Below the pieces are notes generated by a model. That model had not been told where the DNA came from. It was given only the letters and a program-made list of their open reading frames with translations, and ran no database searches. Below are positions 9,069-40,583 of a stretch of 44,453 nt of DNA, piece by piece. Within the stretch, counting starts at the first letter, position 1. Every line of letters begins with the position of its first letter. Origin of the DNA: an uncultured bacterium (GTDB lineage: Bacteria; JAGOEH01). The stretch spans positions 124,001 to 168,453 of the forward strand of contig CAZWDO010000008.1 in assembly GCA_964632485.1 (NCBI GenBank). The letters run 5' to 3'. The position numbers and the translations under genes were made by a program.

Positions 9069-10295
9069 ATTTTACCGTTTTTCATAACGTATTCAGCCAG
9101 ATTGACTCCCATCAGATAAGGAACCATTTCGGGTGACGGGTTGCGCCAGATAATCAGATCGGCCTGATATCCGGGAGCGATACAACCGATGCGTTCATGG
9201 CAGCGCAGGGCATAAGCCGCCTGGATCGTTACGCTGTTCAGCAGTTCGGCAAATGAGCAGTGATAGCGGAGAGCGGCCAGATGCAGCATCAGTGGGATAC
9301 TCAGACAGGGCGCGGATCCGGGGTTGAAATCAGTGGCCAAGGCGGCGATCCCGCCGGAATCGAGAAACTGCCGCCAGGGAGCCGGGTATTCATGGCCCAG
9401 AACAAGTTCGGCTACCGGCAGGAATAGCGCGCAGATATCACTCTGCGCCAGACGGGATATTTTATCTTCTGCAATGAGTTCCAGATGGTCCAGGGAATCA
9501 AGCTGAAATTCCAGGGCGAGTTCAACAGCGCCTATATCATGCAACTGGTTGGCATGAGCGCATAAATGGTAGCCTAATTCATGGGCTGTTTTAAAAATTA
9601 TCCGCGCATCTTCAACTGAATACGCGTTTTCTTCAATAAAAATATCGCACCGTTGACAATATTTCCGAAATGCCGGGAGCATCTCCTTGATCAGCTCATG
9701 GAAATATTCATCTTTTGATTTGGTTTTTGGATAAACATGAGCCCCCAGAAAAGTGGGAATCAATTCTACCGGCTGTATTCGGTTCAATTCGGCAATCACC
9801 TGCAATATTTTTTCTTCCTGAAAAAAATCGAGTCCATACCCGGTCTTGACTTCCATCGTGGTCGTACCCTGACGCAGCGCCTGCCGAAGAAAGAAAAGTC
9901 CCTGACGGATCAACTGTTCTTTTGAACTTTGATGCAGCGCTTGGACTGTGGCGTGAATACCGCCTCCCTGCCGTTGAATCTCAAGATATGTTGCGCCCTG
10001 CAAGCGGGCATAGAATTCTCCGGATCGTTCTCCGGCAAAAATCAAATGGGTATGAGCGTCAATAAATCCCGGAGTTACACTCCGTTCCTGTCCGACAATA
10101 ATCAACGCGTTTGGATTCTGAGGTGAAANNNNNNNNNNGATTGGGTCCGACTGCCTGGATCAGATTATCCCTAATAAGGATATCAACGTTTTCCAATATG
10201 TCTAATTTTTGTATTGCGTTTCCGCGTAATGGAAACGGCGCCGGAGGCGTGAGCGCCCGACGGATATCCTTGATCAAAATTTCGTTGGGGCTCAA
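9044..10295 (-). CDS. hutI: Imidazolonepropionase (one gene spanning the N gap at 10129-10138)
   Basis: ORFs 10059..10295 (N-terminal beta-sandwich) and 9044..10105 (PGFIDAHTH, GGGIHATV, EVKTGYGL, TFLGAH, ATDFNPGSAP) join across the gap. The TTG start abuts the hutU stop. Confidence 0.9.
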
Positions 10296-11984
10296 TTACG
10301 GAATCCGATTGATTTGAATCTGATGGTTGTTTACAGTTTCCAGCGCTTCAGGGTATCCGGCATCGAAATGTCGGGCCACACCAATTCCTGGATCAGTTGT
10401 TAAAACGCGCTCCAGTCGGCGAGCTTTTTGTTCCGTGCCGTCGGCGACGATCACCATGCCGGCATGGGAAGAGTACCCGATACCGACTCCGCCGCCGTTG
10501 TGGAAACTGACCCAACTGGCGCCATTAACTGAATTAAGAGCGAAGTTAAGTAACGGCCAGTCGGCGACGGCGTCACTTCCATCCAGCATCGCTTCGGTTT
10601 CGCGGTTGGGTGATGCGACTGAACCGGTATCCAGGTGATCCCGTCCGATGACGATTGGCGCCTGAATTTCTCCGTTGGCAATTAATTTATTCATTTCCAG
10701 AGCAAAACGAGCCCGTTCGCCATATCCCAACCAGCAAACCCGATTGGGTAGTCCCAACTGGGGAACCATTTTTTGCGCTTTTAGTATCCATCGCCGTAAG
10801 GGTAGGTTTTCCGGAAACATTTCCAGCGCCAATTGATCGAGCCGCTGAATATCCTTAATATCCCCCGATAAGGCTGCCCAGCGAAATGGACCGCGGCCCT
10901 GGCAAAACAGTGGGCGTATATACGCTGGAACGAACCCCGGATAGAGGTATTGACCTTGAGTATCGCGTACGGCCAGTCCTCCGATTTCCGCTTGCGCCCG
11001 TAAGTTGTTGCCATAGTCAAAACAGATGGACCCTTGCTTCTGAAAATCCAGAACAGCCTGAGTGTGCGCTACCATGGCGCTATATGAACGACGGCGGTAT
11101 TCATCGGGATTTTTTTCAAGTAACCGCAGATTGTCTTCCAAATCTCCGGTAGGTATATAGGCTTTCCAGTCGTGAGCGGAAGTTTGATCGGTAACGATAT
11201 CAGGAATAAATCCGGTTTTTATAAGATAGGGATGGATTTGCGCGGCATTTCCAACTAATCCGATTGATAGGGGTTTTTTGAGTTTTCTATATTCTTCAAC
11301 CCATTTCAAGGCTTCTTCGACCTTATCGGTCATTCGATCGCAATATCCTTCGTTGACTTTACGGGCAACACGGTCCGGCCGGACTTCCACATTAAGAATG
11401 ATCGCATCGTTCATGGTGGCGGCCAGAGGCTGGGCGCCCGACATTCCTCCCAGACCGGCGGTCAAAATTACTTTCCCGGCCAAAGAATCTACCCCCCATT
11501 CTTTTTGGCCCAGAGCGGCGAAGGTTTCATAAGTACCCTGAAGTATCCCTTGGGTGCCGATATATATCCAACTGCCGGCGGTCATTTGCCCGTACATCAT
11601 CAGTCCGGCCCTGTCCAACTGGTCAAAATGATCCTGGTTCGACCAATGGGGCACTAGATTGGAATTCGCGATAATCACTCGTGGAGCTTCGGGATGGGAG
11701 GGAGCAATATAAACGGGTTTGCCGGACTGGACGCATAAGGTATGACGATCGTCCAGTTTTTTCAAAATTTCAACAATTTGATGATATGCTTGCCAATTTC
11801 GGGCCGCGCGGCCAGAACCCCCGTAAACAATCAGGTTTTGCCAATCAATAGCCACATCCGGGTCTAAGTTATTCATCAGCATCCTCAATGCCCCTTCAGC
11901 ATCCCAGTTGGGACAACGGCGCTGGTTTCCCCTCGGCGCGCGTATCGGGGCTGTGGGACGAAATTCTTCGAACATGGGTCTCAT
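10296..11984 (-). CDS. hutU: Urocanate hydratase
   Basis: [81 protein letters not shown] motifs. Confidence 0.97.
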
Positions 11985-14491: not shown

Positions 14492-15451
14492 TTATTGGAT
14501 TAATCCGTTGGATAGTAGATTTTTTATCAATAAAAATGCTTTGCTTTTTTCCTGGGCACTGGTATTAAGAAAAACTTGATTGGTTAAATCCTTCAACAAA
14601 CCTGTTTTTTTTAAGCATTGATTAAATAAATCCGGATATAGAAAGTAAAAATGGAACTCCCTGTTCATTCGGTCTTTATTCATATGAAAATAGTGAACCC
14701 CCGCAATTTTTTCTTTTACTTTCCTTTTAGTATATAAAATTTTGTTTTCGGCTATTGCATCAGACAACACGCAATTCCATTTATAGGCATCAGCCTGATC
14801 GGTTGATTCATTATATAAATAATTCATTGCGAATTGATCGCTTCCCCATTCCTGATCGGAAATAAAACCGGATTGAACTAATTTTTGAAATTGGTAGAGT
14901 TTGTTTAGAAAAGATAAAGCATTGCCGCCCATGAATCCACCGTTTATATGCCCTCCGAATTGATCCAAAAGAAAATCATATTTTTTCATCATTATCGTCC
15001 ATTCAGTAGGGTATTGTTTAATTTTGCCTCTCAACGGCCGATTTCGGCTAATTTCAGTAGAGTAAACGCAACCGTGACAATGCTCGATTTTTTGGAAAAG
15101 ATGTTGAATATCATCTTGAAACCAGATATCCGCATCAAAATGAACAAATGTAGTATCCGTTGGATATTCCTCGATTATAGGTATCACATCGAGCAATCTT
15201 CGATTGACAATCAGTTTCTCTTTATATCCGTTGGGAAGAACGCGGCGGATGAATCTAATGTTCAGCGATTCTAAAGCCCTTTTAATCGGATGATCGATTC
15301 CATAGTCCAGAATGAATATTTCATTTTGATAATGGCCCAAGGTACGTAAACTGATTGCCCATTCCAATAAATAAATACCAGAATAGTAGCTTGCGCTGGT
15401 AAAAATGACCTGCTTATTAGTCAAATAAGGGCCCATTCGCATCGTTTGCAA
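14492..15451 (-). CDS. GT-A fold nucleotide-diphospho-sugar transferase-like protein
   Basis: SLRTLGHY...ILDYG, DxD motif HFDADIWF, INGGFMGG, SDQFAMNY, KWNC and VHYFH. The true start may be the TTG at 15424 (TTGA overlap with the upstream stop). Confidence 0.65.
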   Translation of the reverse strand: MQTMRMGPYLTNKQVIFTSASYYSGIYLLEWAISLRTLGHYQNEIFILDYGIDHPIKRALESLNIRFIRRVLPNGYKEKLIVNRRLLDVIPIIEEYPTDTTFVHFDADIWFQDDIQHLFQKIEHCHGCVYSTEISRNRPLRGKIKQYPTEWTIMMKKYDFLLDQFGGHINGGFMGGNALSFLNKLYQFQKLVQSGFISDQEWGSDQFAMNYLYNESTDQADAYKWNCVLSDAIAENKILYTKRKVKEKIAGVHYFHMNKDRMNREFHFYFLYPDLFNQCLKKTGLLKDLTNQVFLNTSAQEKSKAFLLIKNLLSNGLIQ

Positions 15452-16227
15452 ATATAGTAAAATTCGGATTTAATTTTACCAGTTGTTTTTAATAGCATTT
15501 CCCGATAGGTAGGTGAATTAAATATATTATTAAGTGTTTGCTCGCAAATATTACCAATAATTACTTCCTTTTTCCAATCCATGCAACAAATAATCATGTC
15601 TCCGTTAATATGGAAATTAATCCATTCGTTGTTTCTTTTCCGTTTACAACCCCGAATTGTATGATGGTAGATGGTATTGGTATAAAAACCTGCCCTTGAT
15701 GAATATTCAAAGAGGGTCCATTCCCCATTCTTTTTTTTCCATGAGGGAGAAACCTTAACAACCAAATTAGAATTAAGTTTAATATACGTAATGGATTGAA
15801 TCATATATTGATAATCTTCCGGGGAGATATTGGATTGAGTAATATAATTGTATGAATTGCTGTCATAACCATAAAGTGAAATATATATCTGAGTGAAATT
15901 GGATGCAATTATATCTGGGGCATATTTTGGAACAAGAAGGCCATTGGTTGAGAAAATTGTATATGCATGGGGGAGTATTTTTTTGACATATTGAACGCGT
16001 TCAAATAATAATGGATCTAATAATGGTTCATTTTGAAAATATAAATGAATATTTAGATTAGGAGTAATTATTTCATTATCAATTTCTTTTTTTAATTCAT
16101 GGATGATTCTTTTAAACAATTTCATATCCATGATTTTCCCGGAATGGGAAATACTCTTATAGGGGCACATACGACAAGCTGCATTGCATGCGTCGATAGT
16201 TTGAATCTGGACAAAACAAATTTTCAT
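15421..16227 (-). CDS. Radical SAM protein with SPASM/Twitch domain
   Basis: CNAACRMC, NEPLLDP, STNG; C-terminal GC...NGDMIICCMDW...IGNI...CKRC. Confidence 0.9.
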   Translation of the reverse strand: MKICFVQIQTIDACNAACRMCPYKSISHSGKIMDMKLFKRIIHELKKEIDNEIITPNLNIHLYFQNEPLLDPLLFERVQYVKKILPHAYTIFSTNGLLVPKYAPDIIASNFTQIYISLYGYDSNSYNYITQSNISPEDYQYMIQSITYIKLNSNLVVKVSPSWKKKNGEWTLFEYSSRAGFYTNTIYHHTIRGCKRKRNNEWINFHINGDMIICCMDWKKEVIIGNICEQTLNNIFNSPTYREMLLKTTGKIKSEFYYICKRCEWALI

Positions 16228-16255
16228 TCAGTTCCGGCCTGAAATCCATATCACG

Positions 16256-17161
16256 CTATTTTACCCAGTCGCAATGATGGCAAATATTGTAATTTTTATA
16301 ATCCAATCGCATAAATTCTTTGCGTATATCCTTAAAAGAGGAGTTGTTCCAGATATCCTTAATTGATTGGGTGTTTGTGTCGCCTAATATTATATCGCCG
16401 TTGAAATCCATGCAGCAGGGAACGACTTCTCCAGTATATAGAACGACCATGGTGTTCCATGGGAATTCACATGTGAATTTCTTTTCACCCGCTATATTGA
16501 ATTCTTTACCGCGTCCATAATTATGTAATTGAGTAATGTTCAATTTATCATTCCAAACTGGATTGATTTGAGATTTGAAAAGATGGACAAATTGTTGTAT
16601 CTGGCGGTTATTCGTTTCCATTGGGATATACTGAATGACGATACTGGGTTTGGTTTTATTCAATTTTCTTCTGACATTGAAAAAATTGAGCGTATTGGAT
16701 AAGGTTTGCTCGAAATCTAAACCTCGCATGGTATTATTATATGTTGGAGCATCTGTACCGTAGAAGCTGATTTTTATCCGGTCCAGTCCATTTTGGATTA
16801 ATGTATGCGCCAATGAATCGTTTAATAACGACCCATTGGTTACTATATAGGTGAATTTGATTTTATAATCTTTGGCAAATTTGATTTTTGCAGGCAGATC
16901 CGGGTCTATAAGCGGTTCGCCATAATTATGCAGATGAATTCGATTCACTTGTGAGTATCGCGAAATTTCCCGAATCAGTTTTTCAAAGAGAAGGAAATCC
17001 ATGATACCAGTAGGTCGCGTCATTTTATCCCGTGGACACATCACACAATGGGCGTTGCATAGATTAGTGTTTTCTATCCAAACTTGATTGGGGAATTCTG
17101 ATTTTTTGAGTCGTTGGAGTCTGACTACGCTTTCCATACATATGGAGGAAAATCGATCCAT
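16256..17161 (-). CDS. Radical SAM protein with SPASM/Twitch domain
   Basis: CNAHCVMC, GEPLIDP, TNGSLL; CEFPW...GEVVPCCMD...CHHC. Confidence 0.93.
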   Translation of the reverse strand: MDRFSSICMESVVRLQRLKKSEFPNQVWIENTNLCNAHCVMCPRDKMTRPTGIMDFLLFEKLIREISRYSQVNRIHLHNYGEPLIDPDLPAKIKFAKDYKIKFTYIVTNGSLLNDSLAHTLIQNGLDRIKISFYGTDAPTYNNTMRGLDFEQTLSNTLNFFNVRRKLNKTKPSIVIQYIPMETNNRQIQQFVHLFKSQINPVWNDKLNITQLHNYGRGKEFNIAGEKKFTCEFPWNTMVVLYTGEVVPCCMDFNGDIILGDTNTQSIKDIWNNSSFKDIRKEFMRLDYKNYNICHHCDWVK

Positions 17162-17175
17162 AACGCTTCCTTAGG

Positions 17176-18087
17176 TCAATAAATCTCTTCACATTGCAGG
17201 CAAACCGGATAGGTTTGATATTGGATTGCCATAAAATCATGTCGTATTTGATTCATCCGTTCACCCTTCCATATATTTTCGATTGTATCGTCATGCAAAT
17301 TTCCAATAATCTGCTCCCCATTGAAATCCTTGCAACACGTCGAGACTCGCCCATCTTGTAAAATCATCAGAGTCCACCAGGGCCGTTCACAGGTAGAGTA
17401 AATTTTTTTTAAAGAAATGTAATCTCTACCGCCACCGTAATTGTGTAATCTACCAAAATTAAAACTGTCGCCCAAAGCCGGAGTAATCAACGAGGAAAAC
17501 TGATGATAGAATTTTTTGACTGAATCCTGCTTTTCTAAGATGGGAATATAGCGCAGGGTAATTGATGGTTTATGCATTCCGATTTGCTTTCTAAACCAAA
17601 ACAGATTAAAGATATTATTTAAAGTTGAATGGTAATCCAATCCGCGCATTGTTTTTTCATAGGTATTCTGACGTGTCCCATAAAAGCTGATGATAATTTT
17701 ATCAATACCGGCACTTAATATCGATTGGGTTAACTCCGGAGTCAATAATGAAGCATTTGTCCAAAATAAGACACACGAGATTTTTAATTTTTTTGCGATT
17801 TGAATACGTAGTGGGAATTCTTTATCGATCAGTGGTTCGCCATATCCCTGAAGATGTACCGATTGAATCGGATGCTGAGCAATTTCTTTAATTATTTTTT
17901 CAAATAAATTGATCGACATGATCCCGCTAGGGCGTGTCATCTTTTCCCGCGGGCATATTATGCAAGCGGCATTGCACAAATTGGTGTTTTCGATACGCAC
18001 TTCTTGCGGGAAATTGCCGACTTTCAGCTTTCTTAACTGTAAAACACTTTGAAGGGTTTTTGTTTCGAATTCTATTTTATTATTCAT
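17176..18087 (-). CDS. Radical SAM protein with SPASM/Twitch domain
   Basis: CNAACIIC, GEPLID, TNASLL; CERPW...GRVSTCCKD...CLQC. Confidence 0.93.
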   Translation of the reverse strand: MNNKIEFETKTLQSVLQLRKLKVGNFPQEVRIENTNLCNAACIICPREKMTRPSGIMSINLFEKIIKEIAQHPIQSVHLQGYGEPLIDKEFPLRIQIAKKLKISCVLFWTNASLLTPELTQSILSAGIDKIIISFYGTRQNTYEKTMRGLDYHSTLNNIFNLFWFRKQIGMHKPSITLRYIPILEKQDSVKKFYHQFSSLITPALGDSFNFGRLHNYGGGRDYISLKKIYSTCERPWWTLMILQDGRVSTCCKDFNGEQIIGNLHDDTIENIWKGERMNQIRHDFMAIQYQTYPVCLQCEEIY

Positions 18088-18190: not shown

Positions 18191-19111
18191 CTATGATTTA
18201 GGTCGCCGGCCTGAGAGAAAATTATTTATAACTTCGAGAATTTTAAATTCCCGATTAGAAAAATGAAGAACATAACAAGGAATTTGCTGAATAAATGAAT
18301 GGAGTGAATTTTTAATTCTTTCTCCAAAAATAGGTTGAAAAAAGGGTACGAAATGGAAAAAAAATTCTAGCTGAGATATCAATACCCAATCTGGAATGGG
18401 CATTACTTCTAAAAAAGTTTTCGTATCTTGCTGAAGTAATAAACAAAGTTTCATCGGTACGGGTGGATAAGATGGCAAATCAGAATTTATATCATATTGG
18501 TAGAACGGTGAGGGTACCAGCATAAAAGAATCATTGAGTTTCTGGATGAATATTCCGTCATCGCCGTAGAAGGTAACACGGTCTTTCAGCATTTGATAAA
18601 TAGTGCTTTTTCCGACGCCGCTCGAACCCAGACATACAATCCCCCGGTTCAGATAATCGAATCCAACTCCATGTAACGCAAGGCCATCGTTTAGCAGATG
18701 GATTAGGGAAAAGATGAAAAAAAAACCATTCGTATCGAGGTACTGCCACTCTTGACATAAATCCTCAGCTATCCAGTGTCCCGTTCGCGTATTGGGTTCT
18801 AATTCAAGCGATTGGGCACAGTAATTCATCCGTAGTCTGATTTTTTTGTCAGAACCTATGGATTTCCGATTAAAATAGAGTGGCATGTAATCGATTTTAA
18901 AATCATCTTCATGGATCAAAGGGAGTTCTTTATACTCTTTGCGATAGATAAGATTAAATCCATCAAAGGGAGTTAAATCATCCTTAATACTTTTATTAAT
19001 AAAGGGTTGAACTTTATCTGGGATGCCAAAAGGAATCGAGGAATCCGAGTGGACCCTGAATCGGTTCTTAAGGATTCCGCATTCAACCGAATTGATGTAG
19101 GAACTACTCAT
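18191..19111 (-). CDS. HprK-related P-loop kinase (ScmC/PadeK-like, RiPP-associated type)
   Basis: LHGVG (cf. LHAS), Walker A GSSGVGKST and the downstream GDD acidic pair, in the HPr-kinase order. Confidence 0.75.
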   Translation of the reverse strand: MSSSYINSVECGILKNRFRVHSDSSIPFGIPDKVQPFINKSIKDDLTPFDGFNLIYRKEYKELPLIHEDDFKIDYMPLYFNRKSIGSDKKIRLRMNYCAQSLELEPNTRTGHWIAEDLCQEWQYLDTNGFFFIFSLIHLLNDGLALHGVGFDYLNRGIVCLGSSGVGKSTIYQMLKDRVTFYGDDGIFIQKLNDSFMLVPSPFYQYDINSDLPSYPPVPMKLCLLLQQDTKTFLEVMPIPDWVLISQLEFFFHFVPFFQPIFGERIKNSLHSFIQQIPCYVLHFSNREFKILEVINNFLSGRRPKS

Positions 19112-20001
19112 TTATGACGTGTGGTTGGATCCTGGTTTTGATAAACATCTTCATTGAAAAAATTGATAGTGGTTTGATTTTCAGCGCCGGAAAGACTGAA
19201 TGTATCGGCGTCACATCCGTTAGCGCAACGGGAGGACGGAGTGGCGCCAACAGTGCAGGAACCGCCGGCGCGCAGGCCGATTGAGCACTGGGTGTTATCT
19301 CCCGGCGAACCGTTTACGCAGTTTCCGTCGCCGTTGTTGCAAAAATCATTGGCATTGTTGCCCAGAATGCAATCCCCTCCGTAATTTCCAGCGATGTTTC
19401 CCATCAGGCAGCTATTCTGCGGCCAGTTGCCGTTATTGCAATCTCCCCAGTTATAATCATCATCACACCCGGCGCCGCAAGCCTGAGTGGCCTGTTCCCC
19501 GCCCCAACAGGTTCCGTAAGCATTATCTCCCCCTTCATTACAGGCAATCTCCGCATCGCTGCCAACCAAACAGCTCCCCCCATAAGTACAGGTTCCTGAG
19601 CTATAAGTATCACAACCACTTGCGCATCCCAAAATGGCATCGCAACCATAACGACAATCAGCATCCACATCATCGTTGCCGCTATTGCAATTATAAGTAA
19701 TTGTGTCTGTGTCGCTTCCGTTGTAACAAAAAGCTGAATCGGTTGAAGAGCCTGAATTGCAGACATCCGCATTATCGGCATTTCCGCCGCTGACGCAACT
19801 GCCAGCCGCATTGGCGCCTATATCGCAGGCCCAGCCGGCTACTGCTCCTTGCCGGCATTCCTCGGTAGCTACCGATCCCGCCAGACAATCAATCGAAGCG
19901 TTCGATCCCAATTCACAACTGGTAACCGAAGTTTGACCCACGGCCTGGCTTGTTAATGACATAAAATCGTAAATTTCCGGCTTGACATAGTTCTTTTTCA
20001 T
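19108..20001 (-). CDS. Cys/Gly-rich repeat protein with YxxP leader; candidate very large RiPP precursor
   Basis: ATG at 20001 behind AAGGG gives MKKNYVKPEIYDF..., followed by 23 CxxG repeats (27 Cys in total). The stop overlaps the kinase start (ATGA, 19108-19111). Confidence 0.75.
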   Translation of the reverse strand: MKKNYVKPEIYDFMSLTSQAVGQTSVTSCELGSNASIDCLAGSVATEECRQGAVAGWACDIGANAAGSCVSGGNADNADVCNSGSSTDSAFCYNGSDTDTITYNCNSGNDDVDADCRYGCDAILGCASGCDTYSSGTCTYGGSCLVGSDAEIACNEGGDNAYGTCWGGEQATQACGAGCDDDYNWGDCNNGNWPQNSCLMGNIAGNYGGDCILGNNANDFCNNGDGNCVNGSPGDNTQCSIGLRAGGSCTVGATPSSRCANGCDADTFSLSGAENQTTINFFNEDVYQNQDPTTRHK

Positions 20002-20184
20002 AAGATTATTCCCTTTGAATTTCTTATTAAACTTATCATAATTTATTTTTTGAATCAATCAGTAAGCAATACTATAAATAAAATATATAACTTTTTTAAA
20101 AAGTCAATAAAAAAATTATTATAAATCTTTTAAATATTTATCAGGATCAGTTCGTTTTTATTTGAGCGAAACTATAATAATTGG

Positions 20185-22044
20185 CTACAATTGGCCGTTC
20201 CACCAGTAATAGATGATGGAAGCGTATTCGTGGAGAATTCCCTCAATCTGGTGAAGTTGGATTTTCTGTTGAAAGAGGGGAAGCCATGATTCGCGATGGG
20301 CATAATACCCCCCATGGGAGGGAGGTGTCCACGTGATTTCCCATTCGGGAGCATGCCTGAGGGCGACTAACTCCACCCGTTTCATGTGATAGGGGGAACT
20401 AATCAGAATGATCTGCCGCCACCCGAATTTTTGTGTGAGTTTATATGAATTTTGTACATTTTGGATAGTATTGCTGGCCTTGTCATCTAATAAAATCAGT
20501 GAATCGGGCACACCCAATGCGATGGCCAGACTTTTCATTACCAATGGTTCCTTGAACACATACATGAAACCGGATGAAAAAATCAGATGCCGGGCGTATC
20601 CCTGGTGAAAAAGCTGAACAGCCGTTTGCACGCGTTCCTCATACCCCTGACCGGCTTCCCCCGATTCGCCCACACCGCCGGCGAAAACAACAATGACGTC
20701 GGCCGGTTTCGGCAAATCACCTTTTTTCAGAGGCCGGGCCAGATACCAGAATAAGGGGGTGAAAAACACTAAATAAATGAAAAAGACAATCCAGGCGGCA
20801 AGTATCAGGGTTTTATAGCGAAACTGATAATAGTTTTTGGCAAAATAACGCAACCAATTGGTTTCCAGTTCCGAGTTCTTGCGATTGAGCGCCGTTTCAA
20901 TTTTGTCGTTCATAAATTCGATTTTGTTTTCCCAACTATTGGCGGTGGCTATCGAGCGACGGTGAGCGAATTGCGTGTCAGTTTGCGGAGCAGAGATAGT
21001 TTGGGAAAGCGCCTGGGCGAATTTTTCCGGATTGTCGGCAATTGTTACAACTCCCGGATAGTCGCGCTCAAAATACCGAATTTCGGCTAAATCCGTTGCT
21101 ACCACCGGTTTTCCCCAATAGAGATATTCATTGAGTTTCGTAGGATAAACATTTTCCGTATAATCGGTTTTCAAATAGGGAATGATGCAGGTATCAAACT
21201 GGGAGATATAATGAGGTAAATCAGTATGGTCCTTTTTTCCAAGTAAATATACATTGGGGTGATTTTCGATTTCACTAATATCGGTTTGGCGGGGGCCGAT
21301 AAAGACAAATGAATATTCGGGGAGCGAACGAATAACCTTCCGCAGTAAATCGAAATCAATCCATTTATGGATTCCCCCCACATACCCGATTCTCGGCTGG
21401 GGTATCGCTTCAATGTCCTTGAAAGAGAGCGGTTCAACCTTAAAGTTTTTTAGCGAAACGCCGAAGGGCACTAAATAGCATTCTGCGTTCCATTGCTGGG
21501 CTTTATCCATGAGTTTATGCGATGTAACAAAGACAATATCCGCCATGGAAAAAATTTTCTGTTCACTGCGCAGAATTTTCGACGCTTTGGCTGAACTGTT
21601 TTCAAAACTGTCGATGCAATAGTAGATAAAAAGCTGCGGATTGATTGTGGGAACTAACGTTGCCACTAATGGAGTAGGCAGATAGGTGATAACGATAGGA
21701 TTTTCGAAACGCATCAATTTGTTCCAGCGACGCAAGGTTTGACGCAGGATGAACGCATTGAGCCAGGTTATCGGACGGCTGTAGGGAAACGGCAATAGGA
21801 CCGGTGAATATAAGTAGAGGTGTTCGTTTACTTTACGAAATCCCCGAAAGGAGTGGAACCAATTGAACAGGCGTTTCTTCAATCGGCCGAAATCATGGAT
21901 GCCAGGGGAGCGGACTCCCGTATTTTCGATAAACAGGATGCGATTACCGGCCGATGCTAATTGAGAGGCTATTTCCTGATGGCCTTGCCAGATGAAATCC
22001 CAATCGATAGTCGAAATGTAGATAATATCTTGTTTTTGTATCAT
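20185..22044 (-). CDS. GT-B glycosyltransferase (TuaH/GT4-like) fused via a TM helix to a YdcF/ElyC (DUF218) domain
   Basis: N-terminal WDFIWQGHQ, IGYVGGI, PTKLNEYL...GKPVV; TM segment ILAAWIVFFIYLVFF; C-terminal ADVIVVFAGG, ERV, FSSG, SNTIQN, SSPYHMKR and LHEY. Confidence 0.85.
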   Translation of the reverse strand: MIQKQDIIYISTIDWDFIWQGHQEIASQLASAGNRILFIENTGVRSPGIHDFGRLKKRLFNWFHSFRGFRKVNEHLYLYSPVLLPFPYSRPITWLNAFILRQTLRRWNKLMRFENPIVITYLPTPLVATLVPTINPQLFIYYCIDSFENSSAKASKILRSEQKIFSMADIVFVTSHKLMDKAQQWNAECYLVPFGVSLKNFKVEPLSFKDIEAIPQPRIGYVGGIHKWIDFDLLRKVIRSLPEYSFVFIGPRQTDISEIENHPNVYLLGKKDHTDLPHYISQFDTCIIPYLKTDYTENVYPTKLNEYLYWGKPVVATDLAEIRYFERDYPGVVTIADNPEKFAQALSQTISAPQTDTQFAHRRSIATANSWENKIEFMNDKIETALNRKNSELETNWLRYFAKNYYQFRYKTLILAAWIVFFIYLVFFTPLFWYLARPLKKGDLPKPADVIVVFAGGVGESGEAGQGYEERVQTAVQLFHQGYARHLIFSSGFMYVFKEPLVMKSLAIALGVPDSLILLDDKASNTIQNVQNSYKLTQKFGWRQIILISSPYHMKRVELVALRHAPEWEITWTPPSHGGYYAHRESWLPLFQQKIQLHQIEGILHEYASIIYYWWNGQL

Positions 22045-22234: not shown

Positions 22235-24821
22235 TTAATGTATCACCAGGAATCGATGAATGATCGGCCGGATACCGATTCCGGACATGCTGATAAAATA
22301 GACCCCGGAAGGATAATTGGACACATCGATTTTTAAAATTTTTTCGTTTCGCGCCCATGCCCCCTCATCAATTTTCCGTCCAGCCATATCGAAAATATAA
22401 AATTTTCCATGCGTCGATAGCGGATTATTAAATGAAACATTTAGCTTTAACCGGCATGGATTGGGGAAGAGGGTTAGACTATTCTCTAATGGGTGTTCTG
22501 TGTTAAGTTCTTCAATTCCTGTTGGCGATTGAGTATGAACTTGCCATACTAATTGGCGGAGATAAAACCCTTTTTTCATCAAATGGACACGTAACGTGTG
22601 TGCGCCGTTAGAGACATTTTCCAGTTTGGCGCGGATATAGGTGCGGCTGATCGAACAATCCCCGGTAATTTCGGTGGAATCGAGCCAGCAATGCGCGCTG
22701 TCGGTTATTAGACTGTCAGCGGAAAGCAGTTTGATCTTCAGGGAGATTGTTGAATCGTAAATGATGGTATCGGGCGGGGGAGTCAGGCTGGTAATGGTGA
22801 TGCTGTCTTTTTTGAGTGAGAGGGTTTTACTGATCTGATTGTTGGTCGTATATATCTCGTTGAAAGCCGTGTCGGGAGTCAGCGTCATTTTAATTTTCGC
22901 GCGGTAATAAGCGCCGAAAGAATCGATAGGGAATGCGAAGCTTTCGCGAATCGTTTCCAGGGGGGCCAGCGGTGGGACTTGGAACGCGCTTTGCGCCAGA
23001 GTGTCTCCGCTGGCATAGTCGCTGATCGAGAAATTATACTGAGCGGAGGTGGGAGTGGCGATAACCCCCGCATTTTTAACGAAACAGGTCAGCCATAGTG
23101 AATCATCCGAATATTTATAATCGTAAAATGTAACCAGGTCGGTAGCAGGTCGCATGTAATTGAAGCAATGGACTATGTTGAGGTTGGCATAACCGTTGCT
23201 TTCTCCGGGCCAGTCGTAGTGGATTTTAATACCGTAGTAAGACGGATATGACTCGTTATTAGCGTTTCCGTAGGGATCGTTGAAAATCGCGATGCGTCTT
23301 TCTGGTACATAACCGGTGGCGACTATGTAATGTCCCGAACTGGTGATGGAATTGAGTACCACCATAGGTTGTTGTTGATCAATTTCGCTTTTCAGTTTAT
23401 CAAAATAGGGACTCCAATCGGTTTCAGAATAGATACCGTGTTTTTTGATCAGGTCCCGCATATAGCCTTTAGTATCCTGCAGACTGTTCCAGTAGATGTA
23501 CCCGTATATACCCCAGCCGGTACTTCCATTGCTGCGGGTATTCCAACGGTCATAGGTGACCCCGTTAAGGCTGTAGATTTCCGAAATATAGAGACCGTAA
23601 GTACTTTGGTGCGAAAAGGGGGTATAGCAGTTGACGGGCCAGGGTTTGAGTACGTTGTAATAGATCAACCCCATGATGGTGGATGCCGCGCCGCAGCAGC
23701 CGCCGCCCAATCCTGAACGTGATGGGCTGATATCATAGACCTGGTTAAAATAGATTGTATCGAAAGCAGCAATGGTAACATCTTCAGCCGGGTGTTGAAA
23801 AGGTGGTTGGATTAGAGATATCTTGGCGGGAATATTCGCTTGGGCAGATTGGGCTGGACTGGCTTTTATTCTCTTTTTAATTATGGGGGTGTCGATTAAG
23901 CGCAGCCCGCCATGGGGAAGATATCGATATGATTTTTGTCCCGTATCAATTAAGATGGCTTGGTGGCCGGGATTGATCATCTGGCGATATAATAGTGGGG
24001 AGGTTGACCAGGATTCGGGTTGGAAGTGGTTTTCCCGGGCATGGAATACGTTTTTGCGGCTGCGGGCGGGACGGGTTTCATTGTCATACTCGATTTCAAG
24101 GTAATGAATTTGATCACTGTTCAGCCATAATGGATCATGGCCTTTAAAGCGAGCAATTCGGGTATTGGCTTCCAAATCATGGATGTAGCACCCGCTCGAG
24201 GCGGTTAGCCCCAGGATATAACGGCCGGAAGGAGACCATTGGACTTGAACAAACTGCTCGCCAGGTTCGTGGTATGATGGTAGATCCGTTTCCAGCCGCC
24301 AGTTGNNNNNNNNNNCCCCGGGGATCGGACCAGCAGAGAATTTCTTCGTTTTGAGGAGAGAATATGGGTAAATTGGAAAACCCGATGCCGGGCATTTTTT
24401 TTACGGGCTGGAATTGAGAGTCGAGAATGATGAGCGTATCCCCGCAAAAAAAAGCGATCCATTGCGAACCGATGGCAGGAACGCTAAGGGTTGACTGCTT
24501 TTGCGCGATGAAAATGGTTTGCTGAGAGCGCCAATCATATATCCCGGCGCTTTGGAGTGGGTGGTAAGGATGAATCTGCTCATTGAAATCCTTGAATCCA
24601 ATCAGGCAACGATCATTGTTGATAGAATAATAACCGCCGGAGAAGGGATGCTGGGTAATAGCGTGGATGGCGCCATCCGGGTTAACGATAATCAATCGCT
24701 CCTGAGAATCGCGATACAATGTTTGCGCATTCATTGGGTATTTATTGTTGGGAAACAGCAGAAAACCGGCGATTAGGACCAGCCATGCCAGCTTATTCCG
24801 GAGAGAAACTCTAATGGTCAA
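22235..24821 (-). CDS. Secreted protein: propeller-like N-terminus, C39-like (papain-fold) peptidase, CARDB/Ig-like domains, Por/T9SS-type CTD; one gene spanning the N gap at 24306-24315
   Basis: After the gap, the frame NWRLETD...QWSPSGRYILG...HDLEANT is open into ORF 22235..24175. Motifs: Q...GCCGAAS, GHYIV, NDPYG; tail LFPNP...IFDMAGR...PSGVYF. Confidence 0.7.
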
Positions 24822-27049: not shown

Positions 27050-27591
27050 TCATCGCTGACAGTTAATTTTCTTGAAGATTTTTAAGCAGGGGTTGGATAT
27101 ATTTGGCCAGGGTATTTATAATTGAACGTGAGATTTTCAGGGCTTGTTTCAACTCTTCGTCGGATATATCCTCGCAGGTTGATGAAGGGTCGATCGTTGC
27201 CACGTCCGCGGCAATTGTCACCTGGGCACTGGTGACCGCAATCGTTTCGACGACCGAGTTGTCGGACGACTTCTTAATGNNNNNNNNNNGTTTGAATAAA
27301 ATAACGGTCCAGGACCAATAAATCTTGAAACGGAAGGTTGAGGGGAGGATTAAAATGAGTAAATTCCATTGAGATATCCACCAGATAATGAGAATCAGGT
27401 AAGTCCCTGTTGTTGAGCAGATAATACGCCTTGAAGGTTTTTTCCAGCGCTTGATGACAGTTGAACGACGCCAATTGGATCAAGCATTGGTGGCGTGAGA
27501 GTTCGGCCACTCTTAAGTCTTGACCTGCAAAATAGAGCCATTGCCTGACCTGTTCAATATGTGTTAATTCTTGCGGATTATTTTGATCCAT
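27050..27591 (-). CDS. HEPN domain protein spanning the N gap at 27280-27289
   Basis: WLYFAGQDL, FNCHQALEKTFKAY, SHYL and LDRYFI motifs. After the gap a frame continues to ...EDISDEELKQALKISRSI...CQR* (stop at 27050-27052). Confidence 0.7.
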
Positions 27592-38766: not shown

Positions 38767-39519
38767 TTATAGAAATTTATTTTTAATTTCGATTAACGAG
38801 CTGTAAAAGCTGATTTCCTGGCGGGGAATTCTAAATTTATCGCTATTTGCTGTATAGAAGCCTTTATTGCTGCAAGCCGCAAATTTTATTCCCAATTGAG
38901 GTAGCAATTCTTCAATTTTAATAGGTATCGCTCCATGTGGATATGAAAAACTCTGAATATCTATGCCGGTTTCCCTAAAATTTTCGATTCCCTTTCTTAG
39001 ATCAGCTATTGTTGATGAATCAAGCCTTTCTGGGAATGGCTGATGATAATAGGCGTGCATGCCAATTTCCACATATTCTGATTGGGCCATTTTTTTTAAA
39101 GAATCCATACTCATTAAAGGATAAATCTCTTTTTGTGTGTTTTTAATGATTTCGCCAATAGCCATAAAAAACGTTGCTTTTACTTTGTACTGTTCTAAAA
39201 GGGGTAGAACTTCTGTATAATTATCTTCGTATCCATCGTCAAATGTTAGTACAACCCGATTTGGTTCATTGGAATTTCCAATTTCTCTCAAAAAAATGGA
39301 ATTGAATTTGTGTTCGGTTATAAAATCCAATATTGATAAGAATTTATTTTTGGTTATTCGAATTCCAATAGCATCTTTTTTATGTATATAATCACCAACA
39401 GAATGCAACAGGAGAACCGGAATGCCGGAGTTGTATCGGTTAGTGTATCTATTTGGAATGAGAGCTCTCAAATAGTAATATAAGTGCTTTAGATAAAAGT
39501 AGAGTTTGGGAAGTTTCAC
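38767..39519 (-). CDS. Polysaccharide deacetylase (CE4/NodB-like)
   Basis: PVLLLH, VLTFDDGYED, ATFF, IGMHAYYH, FSYPHG and IPR motifs. Likely GTG start at 39519 (GTGA overlap). Confidence 0.88.
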   Translation of the reverse strand: MKLPKLYFYLKHLYYYLRALIPNRYTNRYNSGIPVLLLHSVGDYIHKKDAIGIRITKNKFLSILDFITEHKFNSIFLREIGNSNEPNRVVLTFDDGYEDNYTEVLPLLEQYKVKATFFMAIGEIIKNTQKEIYPLMSMDSLKKMAQSEYVEIGMHAYYHQPFPERLDSSTIADLRKGIENFRETGIDIQSFSYPHGAIPIKIEELLPQLGIKFAACSNKGFYTANSDKFRIPRQEISFYSSLIEIKNKFL

Positions 39520-40583
39520 AATCTGATTGGTTTGTAATAAGAAGGGCAATCCCGGCAAATATCGGGTGGATTGGGGGATTTTAATTGTCTTCTGAATTCC
39601 TGATAGGAGTGATTATTCCAAATAGTCGTAAAACTTTCTTGTAGTATATTTCCAAAATTAATTGTATCAGGATTTGCCCCGTGCATACAACAGGGAGTAA
39701 CATAACCCTCTGCAGTAATGTAGGCACTCTTCCAAGGCCATTTACAGAATCTGGGACAAGCTGTATCCGGTGTATTTTCAAGTATGAATTTTAGTCCCAG
39801 TTGATTAGCTTTTTGTTTCGCGTTTCTGAGTTGATATTTAAACTGATGTGCATTTTGGACCAGAGATTGGTCTGTCCATTCATTTTTGAATTTATTATTA
39901 CCCCAGAAATGAATAGTCTGCAGGAAAAGTTTATCGACTTCAAGCTCAGCGGCGAGTTCAATAATGGATTCGAGGCAATTCAGATTATGAGTACCGATAA
40001 CAGTCGCTATACCTGTTTCAACTTTATATCCTGATTCTCTTTTCAGACTTAGGAAAGTTTTAAATTGCTGTATAATAAGCTTAATATCTGCTCCAGGTCG
40101 TAATTTTTGAAATTGTATCTCATCCGATGAATCAATCGAAATATTTATCCAACTGATTCCTGCTTCCAGAAGCTTCCGACTTTTTTCTTCGGTCAAAAAC
40201 ATTCCGTTACTGGCAATCCCTACCGCTATATTTTTGTCCCTTAGCATGTTAATCATTTTAGTAAGTTCCGGATTCAGAAGAGGTTCTCCCATCCCTACCA
40301 GATTTATTTTCCTTATAAAAGGAAACTGTTCGATAATTTTTATGAAGTTTTCAAAAGATAAATGGGATTTATTGTTGCGGTTGGGATTCCAACATGTTTG
40401 ACATGTAAGATTGCAGTGGGTTGTCGGTTCGATTTGCAAGAATAATGGTTGGCTTTTAAGATATGCGGGTTCAAAATAATGATCCATAATAGCGGATATT
40501 GCATTTTTTTTGCAGGCCCATGACGAATTTGTCAGTATATCCACTAATATTTGATATTTTGATATTTTAATTTTTTTATTCAT
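39516..40583 (-). CDS. Radical SAM protein with SPASM/Twitch domain
   Basis: IEPTTHCNLTCQTC, GMGEPLLNP; CKWPW...GYVTPCC...FGNI...CRDC. Confidence 0.92.
   Translation of the reverse strand: MNKKIKISKYQILVDILTNSSWACKKNAISAIMDHYFEPAYLKSQPLFLQIEPTTHCNLTCQTCWNPNRNNKSHLSFENFIKIIEQFPFIRKINLVGMGEPLLNPELTKMINMLRDKNIAVGIASNGMFLTEEKSRKLLEAGISWINISIDSSDEIQFQKLRPGADIKLIIQQFKTFLSLKRESGYKVETGIATVIGTHNLNCLESIIELAAELEVDKLFLQTIHFWGNNKFKNEWTDQSLVQNAHQFKYQLRNAKQKANQLGLKFILENTPDTACPRFCKWPWKSAYITAEGYVTPCCMHGANPDTINFGNILQESFTTIWNNHSYQEFRRQLKSPNPPDICRDCPSYYKPIRL

Follow-up and report, generated by a model that had tools for sequence, protein, structure and literature searches.

The stretch of DNA considered here, hereafter the window, comprises 44,453 nucleotides of contig CAZWDO010000008.1 from an uncultured bacterium of the lineage JAGOEH01 (assembly GCA_964632485.1) and encodes a cysteine-rich protein of 297 residues. 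Judging from its leader, its repeat unit and its gene context, this protein probably belongs, as a giant form, to the ScmA-type precursors of the SynChlorMet (SCM) cassette and would be a protein-sized substrate for leader-guided modification by radical S-adenosylmethionine (SAM)/SPASM enzymes that is handled together with an ScmC-like partner. The SCM family as such is already catalogued in NCBIfam. New are precursors of protein size, the occurrence of six modules in one genome, maturases encoded in trans, and a CxxGCD variant accompanied by three extra radical SAM/SPASM genes.

The open frame lies on the minus strand (the plus-strand frame across 19108..20001 is interrupted by stops), and its ATG at 20001 fits the M-K-K-x-Y start that is seen family-wide; an alternative TTG at 20058 would put 19 extra residues ahead of this start. 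Cysteine accounts for 27 residues (9% of the protein), with the first at position 29 and the last at position 263, and hence a Cys-free leader of 28 residues and a Cys-free tail of 34 residues flank the core, as the original prediction had described them. Its count of 23 CxxG units was likewise reproduced, compared with a mean of 3.9 and a maximum of 11 in 10,000 composition-preserving shuffles of the precursor. As expected from the proposed period of mostly 10–13 residues, 21 of the 23 units fall into this range (twelve of 10, four of 11, two of 12 and three of 13 residues), and the other two measure 6 and 7 residues. The four cysteines that do not start a CxxG unit (residues 120, 130, 179 and 263) each reside within the previously noted CxxGCD motif. 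Asp and Asn are abundant, with 23 Asp in the core, which lacks Lys, as stated before, and also His. Tandem Repeats Finder returned 0 rows for the gene. In the absence of a DNA-level tandem repeat the units must be old and diverged, in agreement with the earlier view that the divergent spacers do not stem from recent slippage. The N-terminus carries no hydrophobic stretch (maximum 9-residue Kyte–Doolittle mean of 0.97, where the signal peptide of a secreted protein encoded nearby reaches 2.27), so that the claimed lack of a Sec signal peptide holds as judged by hydropathy alone. A sigma-70 promoter scan was uninformative (28 sites versus 28.5 expected).

Scans of the precursor protein against Pfam and NCBIfam gave no match, and a word-indexed search with the whole protein returned 559 candidates, none of them at E<=1e-3; the exact sequence is absent from this collection, probably because another start was called or the gene was not called. 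Family membership emerged from a profile of the N-termini of the precursor and its five giant paralogues from the same genome (Table 1), which was searched against 1.84 billion representative proteins and matched 189 of them at E<=1e-3, including the Syntrophales-type short precursors P0017, P0025, P0036, P0042 and others at E 1e-8 to 1e-6; relatives of these short precursors occur at loci whose ScmE and ScmF pass their cut-offs (see below). Among the 150 matches that were listed, and to which the classification applies, 127 are peptides of 65–160 residues with a Y-x-x-P leader and 3–12 CxxG units, and 4 are giants, two of which come from this genome. The other 19 are unrelated: those inspected show perfect recent tandem repeats, have no leader or contain too few units, and the long proteins P0003, P0007 and P0009 with their perfect recent tandem repeats were accordingly set aside. 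A weak match, P0121 (405 residues), is rich in Cys and Asp and combines a twin-arginine-like N-terminus with irregular C-x-x-G / D-x-C repeats, without Y-x-x-P; it may represent a secreted look-alike family.

If the leader is not used for selection, Y-x-x-P is found within the first 50 residues of 126 of the 131 listed matches with up to 160 residues and at least three CxxG units. The YxxP leader anticipated for homologues is therefore a genuine trait of the family, in the form Y-x-x-P and not in the narrower form Y-x-[KR]-P that had been put forward. Its Tyr precedes the first CxxG by 16–32 residues in the listed short matches and by 24 in the window precursor. The motif shared across the family reads K-x-Y-x-x-P-x-[I/L]-x-x-[F/L], to which this lineage adds G-Q-T before the first Cys; in the six paralogues, the leader takes the form M-K-K-x-Y-x-x-P-E-I-F-x-F-x-x-L-S-S-Q-x-x-G-Q-T. 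At the AVG that had been named as a candidate cleavage site, G22 and T24, directly after, are invariant in all six.

Giants and short forms also share a 10-residue unit, C-x-x-G-x-x-[A/P]-x-x-x, in which C-x-x-G is mostly followed by S/N/G/T, then S/N/T, then A (54–55%) or P (21–23%). Position +6, a feature missed by the original prediction, is Ala or Pro in 77% of 246 units from 12 giants (Ala 54%, Pro 23%) and in 76% of 772 units from short forms. What sets the giants apart is the number of CxxG units, 15–30, whereas the 127 listed short relatives have at most 12, with a median of 6. The CxxGCD motif occurs four times in the window precursor and in none of 12 other giants, and CxxGC is present in 2 of the 127 short forms. 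The NCBIfam model for ScmA, TIGR04252, is touched at E<=1 by 16 of 28 scanned relatives (26 short, 2 giant), including the giant P0008 (E 0.028, 14.6 bits), and only P0021 (36.5 bits) passes its cut-off of 35 bits. In metagenome contigs, 57 pattern matches (alignment A7) contained no relative, and alignment A8 retrieved one locus (L047) with a sequence identical to that of locus L014 in genome G002.

The gene neighbourhoods of the short relatives connect the family with the SCM cassette. A scan of genome contigs with 12 short precursors revealed 13 loci, each in a metagenome-assembled genome (MAG) of Syntrophales or Desulfobacterales type; open reading frames (ORFs) were listed for nine loci, and 32 ORFs from seven of them were scanned. 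ScmE lies beside the precursor in L027, L030 and L031 with 553, 578 and 558 bits, above the cut-off of 400, and in L028 with 221 bits, and ScmF reaches 558 bits in L030 and 317–333 bits in L027, L028 and L031. ScmC-like proteins of 303–372 residues are encoded in six loci (26–37 bits, below the cut-off of 125), and PqqD/ScmD-like ORFs in L026 and L030. As the short precursors adjoin ScmE, ScmF, ScmC-like and PqqD genes, the family can be regarded as ScmA of the SCM cassette in a wider sense, and its architecture of leader and Cys repeats is common to the window precursor and the precursors of bona fide cassettes. The PapB model scores only 57–96 bits on the ScmE and ScmF proteins of these cassettes. 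In two Syntrophales-type MAGs, the cassette is adjoined by a homologue of the XrtA/PEP-CTERM-system-associated ATPase (L030, 3981–4814, 240 bits; L031, 4440–5273, 253 bits), in both cases below the cut-off of 324.5; the name of this ATPase family derives from exopolysaccharide-linked sorting systems.

Table 1. Features of the putative precursor system in the window and elsewhere in the same genome (G000); C2, C3, C8 and C11 denote contigs, L numbers loci.
Feature	Position	Strand	Remarks
Giant ScmA-like precursor gene (candidate)	window 19108..20001	minus	297 aa; leader 1–28, 23 CxxG units 29–262, 34-residue tail
ScmC-like protein, predicted HprK/PEPCK-fold P-loop enzyme	window 18191..19111	minus	306 aa; directly downstream of precursor
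Small radical SAM/SPASM protein 1	window 17176..18087	minus	303 aa; Radical_SAM 43.4, SPASM 49.4 bits
Small radical SAM/SPASM protein 2	window 16256..17161	minus	301 aa; 44% identical to protein 1
Small radical SAM/SPASM protein 3	window 15421..16227	minus	268 aa; 29% identical to protein 2
Last gene of same-strand string	window 14492..15451	minus	319 aa; GT-A (GT8-like) lead, ESM Atlas
GT1 glycosyltransferase–DUF218 fusion	window 20185..22044	minus	upstream; Glyco_trans_1_4 49.8, DUF218 81.7 bits
Five further giant paralogues	loci L008–L011		214–377 aa, 16–30 CxxG units
Giant paralogue	C11 54253–55236	plus	
Giant paralogue	C8 3954–5084	minus	
Giant paralogue	C8 1060–1701	minus	
Giant paralogue	C3 79164–79952	plus	
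Giant paralogue	C3 93292–94086	minus	
Operon of two PqqD-domain ORFs, ScmE-like, ScmF-like	L036 (C2 163000–182999) 8976–11965	minus	

The most constant partner of the giants, the largest of which has 30 units, is the ScmC-like gene, of which every paralogue has its own copy (6/6). Across the three genomes of this phylum in the genome collection, all of which encode giants, 9 of 10 giants have an ScmC-like neighbour, and in seven of the nine pairs it follows directly 3′ of the precursor at a distance of −25 to +15 nucleotides. In the window, the ATG of the ScmC-like gene overlaps the TGA of the precursor gene (ATGA). The six ScmC-like neighbours share only 22–30% mutual identity, yet H-G, GxSGxGKST, D-D and P-x-P-F are kept, and H147, S164, G167, K168, T170, D184, P202 and F203 are invariant over 15 sequences. 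Curated models capture these proteins weakly: five of the six partners touch TIGR04249 (ScmC) with a best E of 1.7e-7, far below its cut-off of 125 bits, and the window copy scores 19.5 bits against PF07475 (Hpr_kinase_C; cut-off 33.3) and 21 against TIGR00679 (hpr-ser; cut-off 240), with HprK_rel_B likewise weak. Aligned by hhalign, the ScmC-like proteins of this phylum and those of the Syntrophales cassettes match over the C-terminal ~195 residues (99.6%, E 1e-24). An AlphaFold2 model of the ScmC-like protein (predicted local distance difference test score, pLDDT, of 84) has HPr kinase/phosphorylase (HprK/P) and phosphoenolpyruvate carboxykinase (PEPCK) as top Foldseek matches (E 1e-6, template modelling (TM) score 0.2–0.55); in a profile search against PDB sequences, generic Walker-A matches dominate and HprK/P first appears at E of about 0.012. 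From sequence and model, the partner is thus predicted to be a ScmC-type P-loop enzyme with the fold of HprK and PEPCK. Mantel tests on nine pairs yielded r=0.50 (p about 0.02) for the precursor N-terminus versus ScmC-like identity and r=0.22 (p=0.06) for the leader alone, which is not taken as evidence because a single orthologous pair (L010/L013) drives the correlation. The unknown proteins of 319 and 294 residues beside two of the paralogues bear no relationship to one another. One precursor–ScmC pair on C3 adjoins a gene for a 922-residue fusion of a GT2 glycosyltransferase (GT), a B12-binding radical SAM domain and a methyltransferase (L010, 11528–14296, minus strand), and two GT1 genes come after it, so that in this instance, too, glycan-type genes adjoin such a module.

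PqqD proteins, for which the original prediction had allowed, are indeed encoded in the genome: two PqqD-domain ORFs precede an ScmE/ScmF-like pair on another contig (C2, Table 1). One of them has 138 residues and begins with a hydrophobic, twin-arginine-like segment, the other has 99 residues, and the two score 37.2 and 43.7 bits against PF05402, above the cut-off of 23.4. Neither a precursor nor an ScmC gene lies near this operon. In the sister genus, one contig encodes an ScmE-like protein, an ScmF-like protein, a giant precursor of 236 residues and an ScmC-like protein in this order. In the sister family, the ScmE/F-like pair again lies in trans, and the precursor–ScmC pair is isolated between unrelated genes.

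On this basis, the following route appears probable. PqqD-type recognition proteins would bind the leader and offer the core, predicted to be disordered, to the radical SAM/SPASM pair of ScmE-like and ScmF-like proteins encoded on the other contig, and this pair would modify each unit once. The modification is most likely an intramolecular Cys thioether of the sactionine or ranthionine type, by analogy with sactipeptides, ranthipeptides and the action of CrpC on CrpA (see below), and would afford a polymacrocyclic protein of ~27 kDa. The translationally coupled ScmC-like enzyme most likely would move phosphate from ATP onto its cognate precursor; Ser or Thr is invariant at no position of the unit, hence phosphorylation of a Ser/Thr in each unit is not implied. 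The trio of small radical SAM/SPASM proteins and the GT-like gene behind it may add tailoring particular to the window paralogue; that the trio belongs to the precursor system at all we infer from same-strand adjacency only. An AlphaFold2 model of the precursor with a mean pLDDT of 36, a predicted TM score (pTM) of 0.15 and no DSSP elements, obtained from an alignment of only 12 rows, would fit a disordered enzyme substrate; its first ~20 residues reach a pLDDT of 55–76 and the rest stays low.

Several observations weigh against the assignment to the SCM type or parts of the proposed route. The window precursor itself gives no match to TIGR04252 at E<=0.01, and its ScmC-like neighbour is alone among the six in having no match to TIGR04249. 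The ScmE-like and ScmF-like proteins on C2, at 219 and 317 bits, fall short of the 400-bit cut-offs, and their genes are unlinked to any of the six precursors in the genome; TIGR04248 (ScmD) matches neither of the two PqqD ORFs at E<=0.01. No position of the unit holds an invariant Ser or Thr, and the two sister genomes encode no orthologues of the trio (best match 34% over the N-terminal part), whose nearest paralogues in the genome (24–28% identity) belong to a polysaccharide-type cluster with GT2, GT4/GT1, Wzy_C, methyltransferase and AlgX-like genes. The scanned genes between positions 10296 and 26797 of the window included none recognisable as a leader peptidase or an exporter, and the product may therefore stay protein-sized. 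Finally, no modification has yet been observed for any SCM member, and the literature searched contained no paper on the SCM system.

Of the other explanations, the best one turns the trio (15421–18087) into the dedicated maturases of the precursor, within a self-contained six-gene cluster for a ribosomally synthesised and post-translationally modified peptide (RiPP) whose product is glycosylated by the GT-like gene. This is conceivable, albeit doubtful. The string lies on one strand with gaps of 103, 14 and 28 nucleotides followed by an overlap, the minus strand showed no terminator-like site between its genes, and, among the giants compared, the four CxxGCD sites and the trio coincide in the window paralogue and are both confined to it. 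Yet this arrangement beside a precursor is a single case that the two sister genomes do not repeat. Moreover, the Radical_SAM matches begin at residues 9–35 of the three proteins, which leaves no N-terminal extension of the size of a RiPP precursor recognition element (RRE), nor did the string contain a recognisable PqqD gene. The best NCBIfam matches of the trio are not peptide maturases; protein 1 fits TIGR04317 best, with 110 bits versus a cut-off of 380, compared with 21 bits for ScmE and 33 bits for ScmF. TIGR04463, the family of CrpC (see below), does not occur in the best 25 (of 34 families) for proteins 1 and 2 or in the 14 families listed for protein 3. The nearest relatives of the trio sit among the glycan-type genes mentioned above or, in the case of the nearest match in another genome, beside a UbiA prenyltransferase. 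The three proteins may be extra tailoring enzymes of the precursor or part of an adjoining glycan cluster.

The last gene of the string and the gene upstream of the precursor likewise argue against a role of the trio in peptide maturation. The product of its last gene has no Pfam or NCBIfam match; in the ESM Atlas it obtains a feature score of 0.96 to a GT8 cluster and TM scores of 0.62–0.72 to GT2/GT8-type clusters, and as a lead only, it is probably a GT-A (GT8-like) glycosyltransferase. The upstream GT1–DUF218 gene has an uncertain link with the precursor. A secreted protein encoded two genes upstream of the precursor (22235–24175, minus strand) combines a Peptidase_C39_2-like domain with CARDB and a C-terminal sorting domain of the type IX secretion system (T9SS); it is unlikely to serve as leader peptidase because it is exported. 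A further radical SAM/SPASM protein of 355 residues (39516–40583, minus strand; Radical_SAM 77, SPASM 68 bits) lies within a minus-strand gene string. The window also includes scaffold gaps, runs of 10 N, at 10128–10138, 24305–24315 and 27279–27289, one of which breaks the ORF 24177–24821.

The original prediction had offered three readings of the Cys-rich protein. Family and gene context favour the first, a multiply modified RiPP-type core. According to another, it would be an uncrosslinked, thiolate-rich protein for the binding or storage of metals or iron–sulfur species, with the ScmC-like ATPase as loader or chaperone, which we regard as improbable. Its Cys content of 9%, the abundant Asp and Asn and the core without Lys would suit such a role, as would the lack of a predicted fold, which is also typical of apo-metallothioneins. 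A metal role is discussed for the crp genes of Methanococcus voltae, which are upregulated on pyrite (PMC13692751). However, metallothioneins typically carry CxC or CxxC clusters, of which the window protein, with one Cys per 10 residues, has none, and the invariant Gly at +3 and the A/P at +6 would be left unexplained. The conserved leader is a hallmark of a modification substrate, and so is the family's repeated association with genes for radical SAM/SPASM and PqqD proteins. The remaining reading, a self-folding Cys-laddered solenoid or other regular repeat that serves as a structural or surface protein and not as a RiPP-type substrate, is the least probable of all: the regular period of 10–13 residues, the invariant Cys and Gly and the low-confidence AlphaFold3 beta-helix proposed for CrpA (PMC13692751) speak for it, but the AlphaFold2 check suggested to distinguish solenoid from disorder produced no solenoid and no secondary structure, from a 12-row alignment whose shallowness still leaves room for one, the N-terminus is not signal peptide-like by hydropathy, and the variation from 3 to 30 repeats within one leader-sharing family is more in keeping with modular substrates than with a defined fold.

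Taken together, the window protein is best read as a protein-sized precursor of the ScmA type, and some consequences follow from its size and number. The 23 sites on one chain would amplify any mass shift and open processivity to study, and six natural precursor/ScmC pairs in one genome are suited to testing the precursor specificity and the action of the kinase-fold enzyme. SCM cassettes occur widely among uncultured anaerobes. If their giant products are crosslinked proteins, the boundary that separates RiPP natural products from structural proteins crosslinked after translation shifts further. A more far-reaching picture, which we consider unlikely in its entirety, is that this phylum makes protein-sized polymacrocyclised proteins with 15–30 crosslinkable units, each served by its own kinase-fold enzyme and all by one radical SAM/SPASM pair in trans, and that the CxxGCD sites of the window copy are modified by the trio and the product is glycosylated by the glycosyltransferases on its flanks, giving a crosslinked glycoprotein of the envelope or matrix instead of a diffusible peptide.

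Among known systems, the closest is SCM itself (TIGR04252 ScmA, TIGR04249 ScmC, TIGR04248 ScmD, TIGR04250 ScmE, TIGR04251 ScmF), which is defined by comparative genomics only. Shared with it are the Y-x-x-P leader, the C-x-x-G-x-x-A/P unit, an HprK-like neighbour of the ScmC type, and ScmE/F-like and PqqD genes in the genome. Unlike the short forms, the window precursor is 297 residues long, with 23 units, four CxxGCD motifs and a 34-residue tail. Unlike the usual cassettes, six precursor–ScmC modules are dispersed in the genome, with ScmE/F and PqqD on another contig, and three extra small radical SAM/SPASM genes follow downstream of the window precursor.

Ranthipeptides and sactipeptides, such as freyrasin from PapA and PapB with its repeated C-x3-D motif or the SCIFF peptides, likewise combine a leader with repeated Cys motifs, each of which receives one crosslink from a radical SAM/SPASM enzyme. 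They are short peptides that are processed by one RRE-fused maturase and have a defined acceptor (Asp, Asn, Thr and others), whereas the unit of the window precursor offers no obvious acceptor position. For the ScmC-like partner, a precedent exists in the HprK-like kinases of lasso-peptide clusters, which phosphorylate a Ser of the precursor (paeninodin type). With HPr kinase/phosphorylase it has in common the P-loop GxSGxGKS(T), the preceding H-G and the following D-D, as well as the Foldseek matches to HprK/P and PEPCK, but it scores below every curated cut-off and its N-terminal ~120 residues are unrelated.

Enzymatic thioether crosslinking of a whole protein was demonstrated only in 2026, for CrpA of Methanococcus voltae: the radical SAM/SPASM enzyme CrpC, a member of TIGR04463 with its own RRE, installs ranthionine thioethers on this 28.8 kDa Cys-repeat protein, which is built from 17-residue units with C-x-x-Q/D (PMC13692751). 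The likeness to the window precursor extends to the protein size, an N-terminal leader-like region, a C-terminal array of Cys repeats, a structure predicted with low confidence and a partner of the radical SAM/SPASM type. No sequence relationship was found, in searches that did not include CrpA itself. Supplemental Data set 1 of PMC13692751 lists CrpA-like proteins from bacteria, among which relatives of the present family may be found. The two systems differ in their units, 10-residue C-x-x-G in the window precursor versus 17-residue C-x-x-Q/D in CrpA, in their enzyme families and in their context, since the three-gene crp cluster is archaeal and is described without a kinase-like partner (PMC13692751), whereas each giant of the present genome is paired with an ScmC-like gene of its own.

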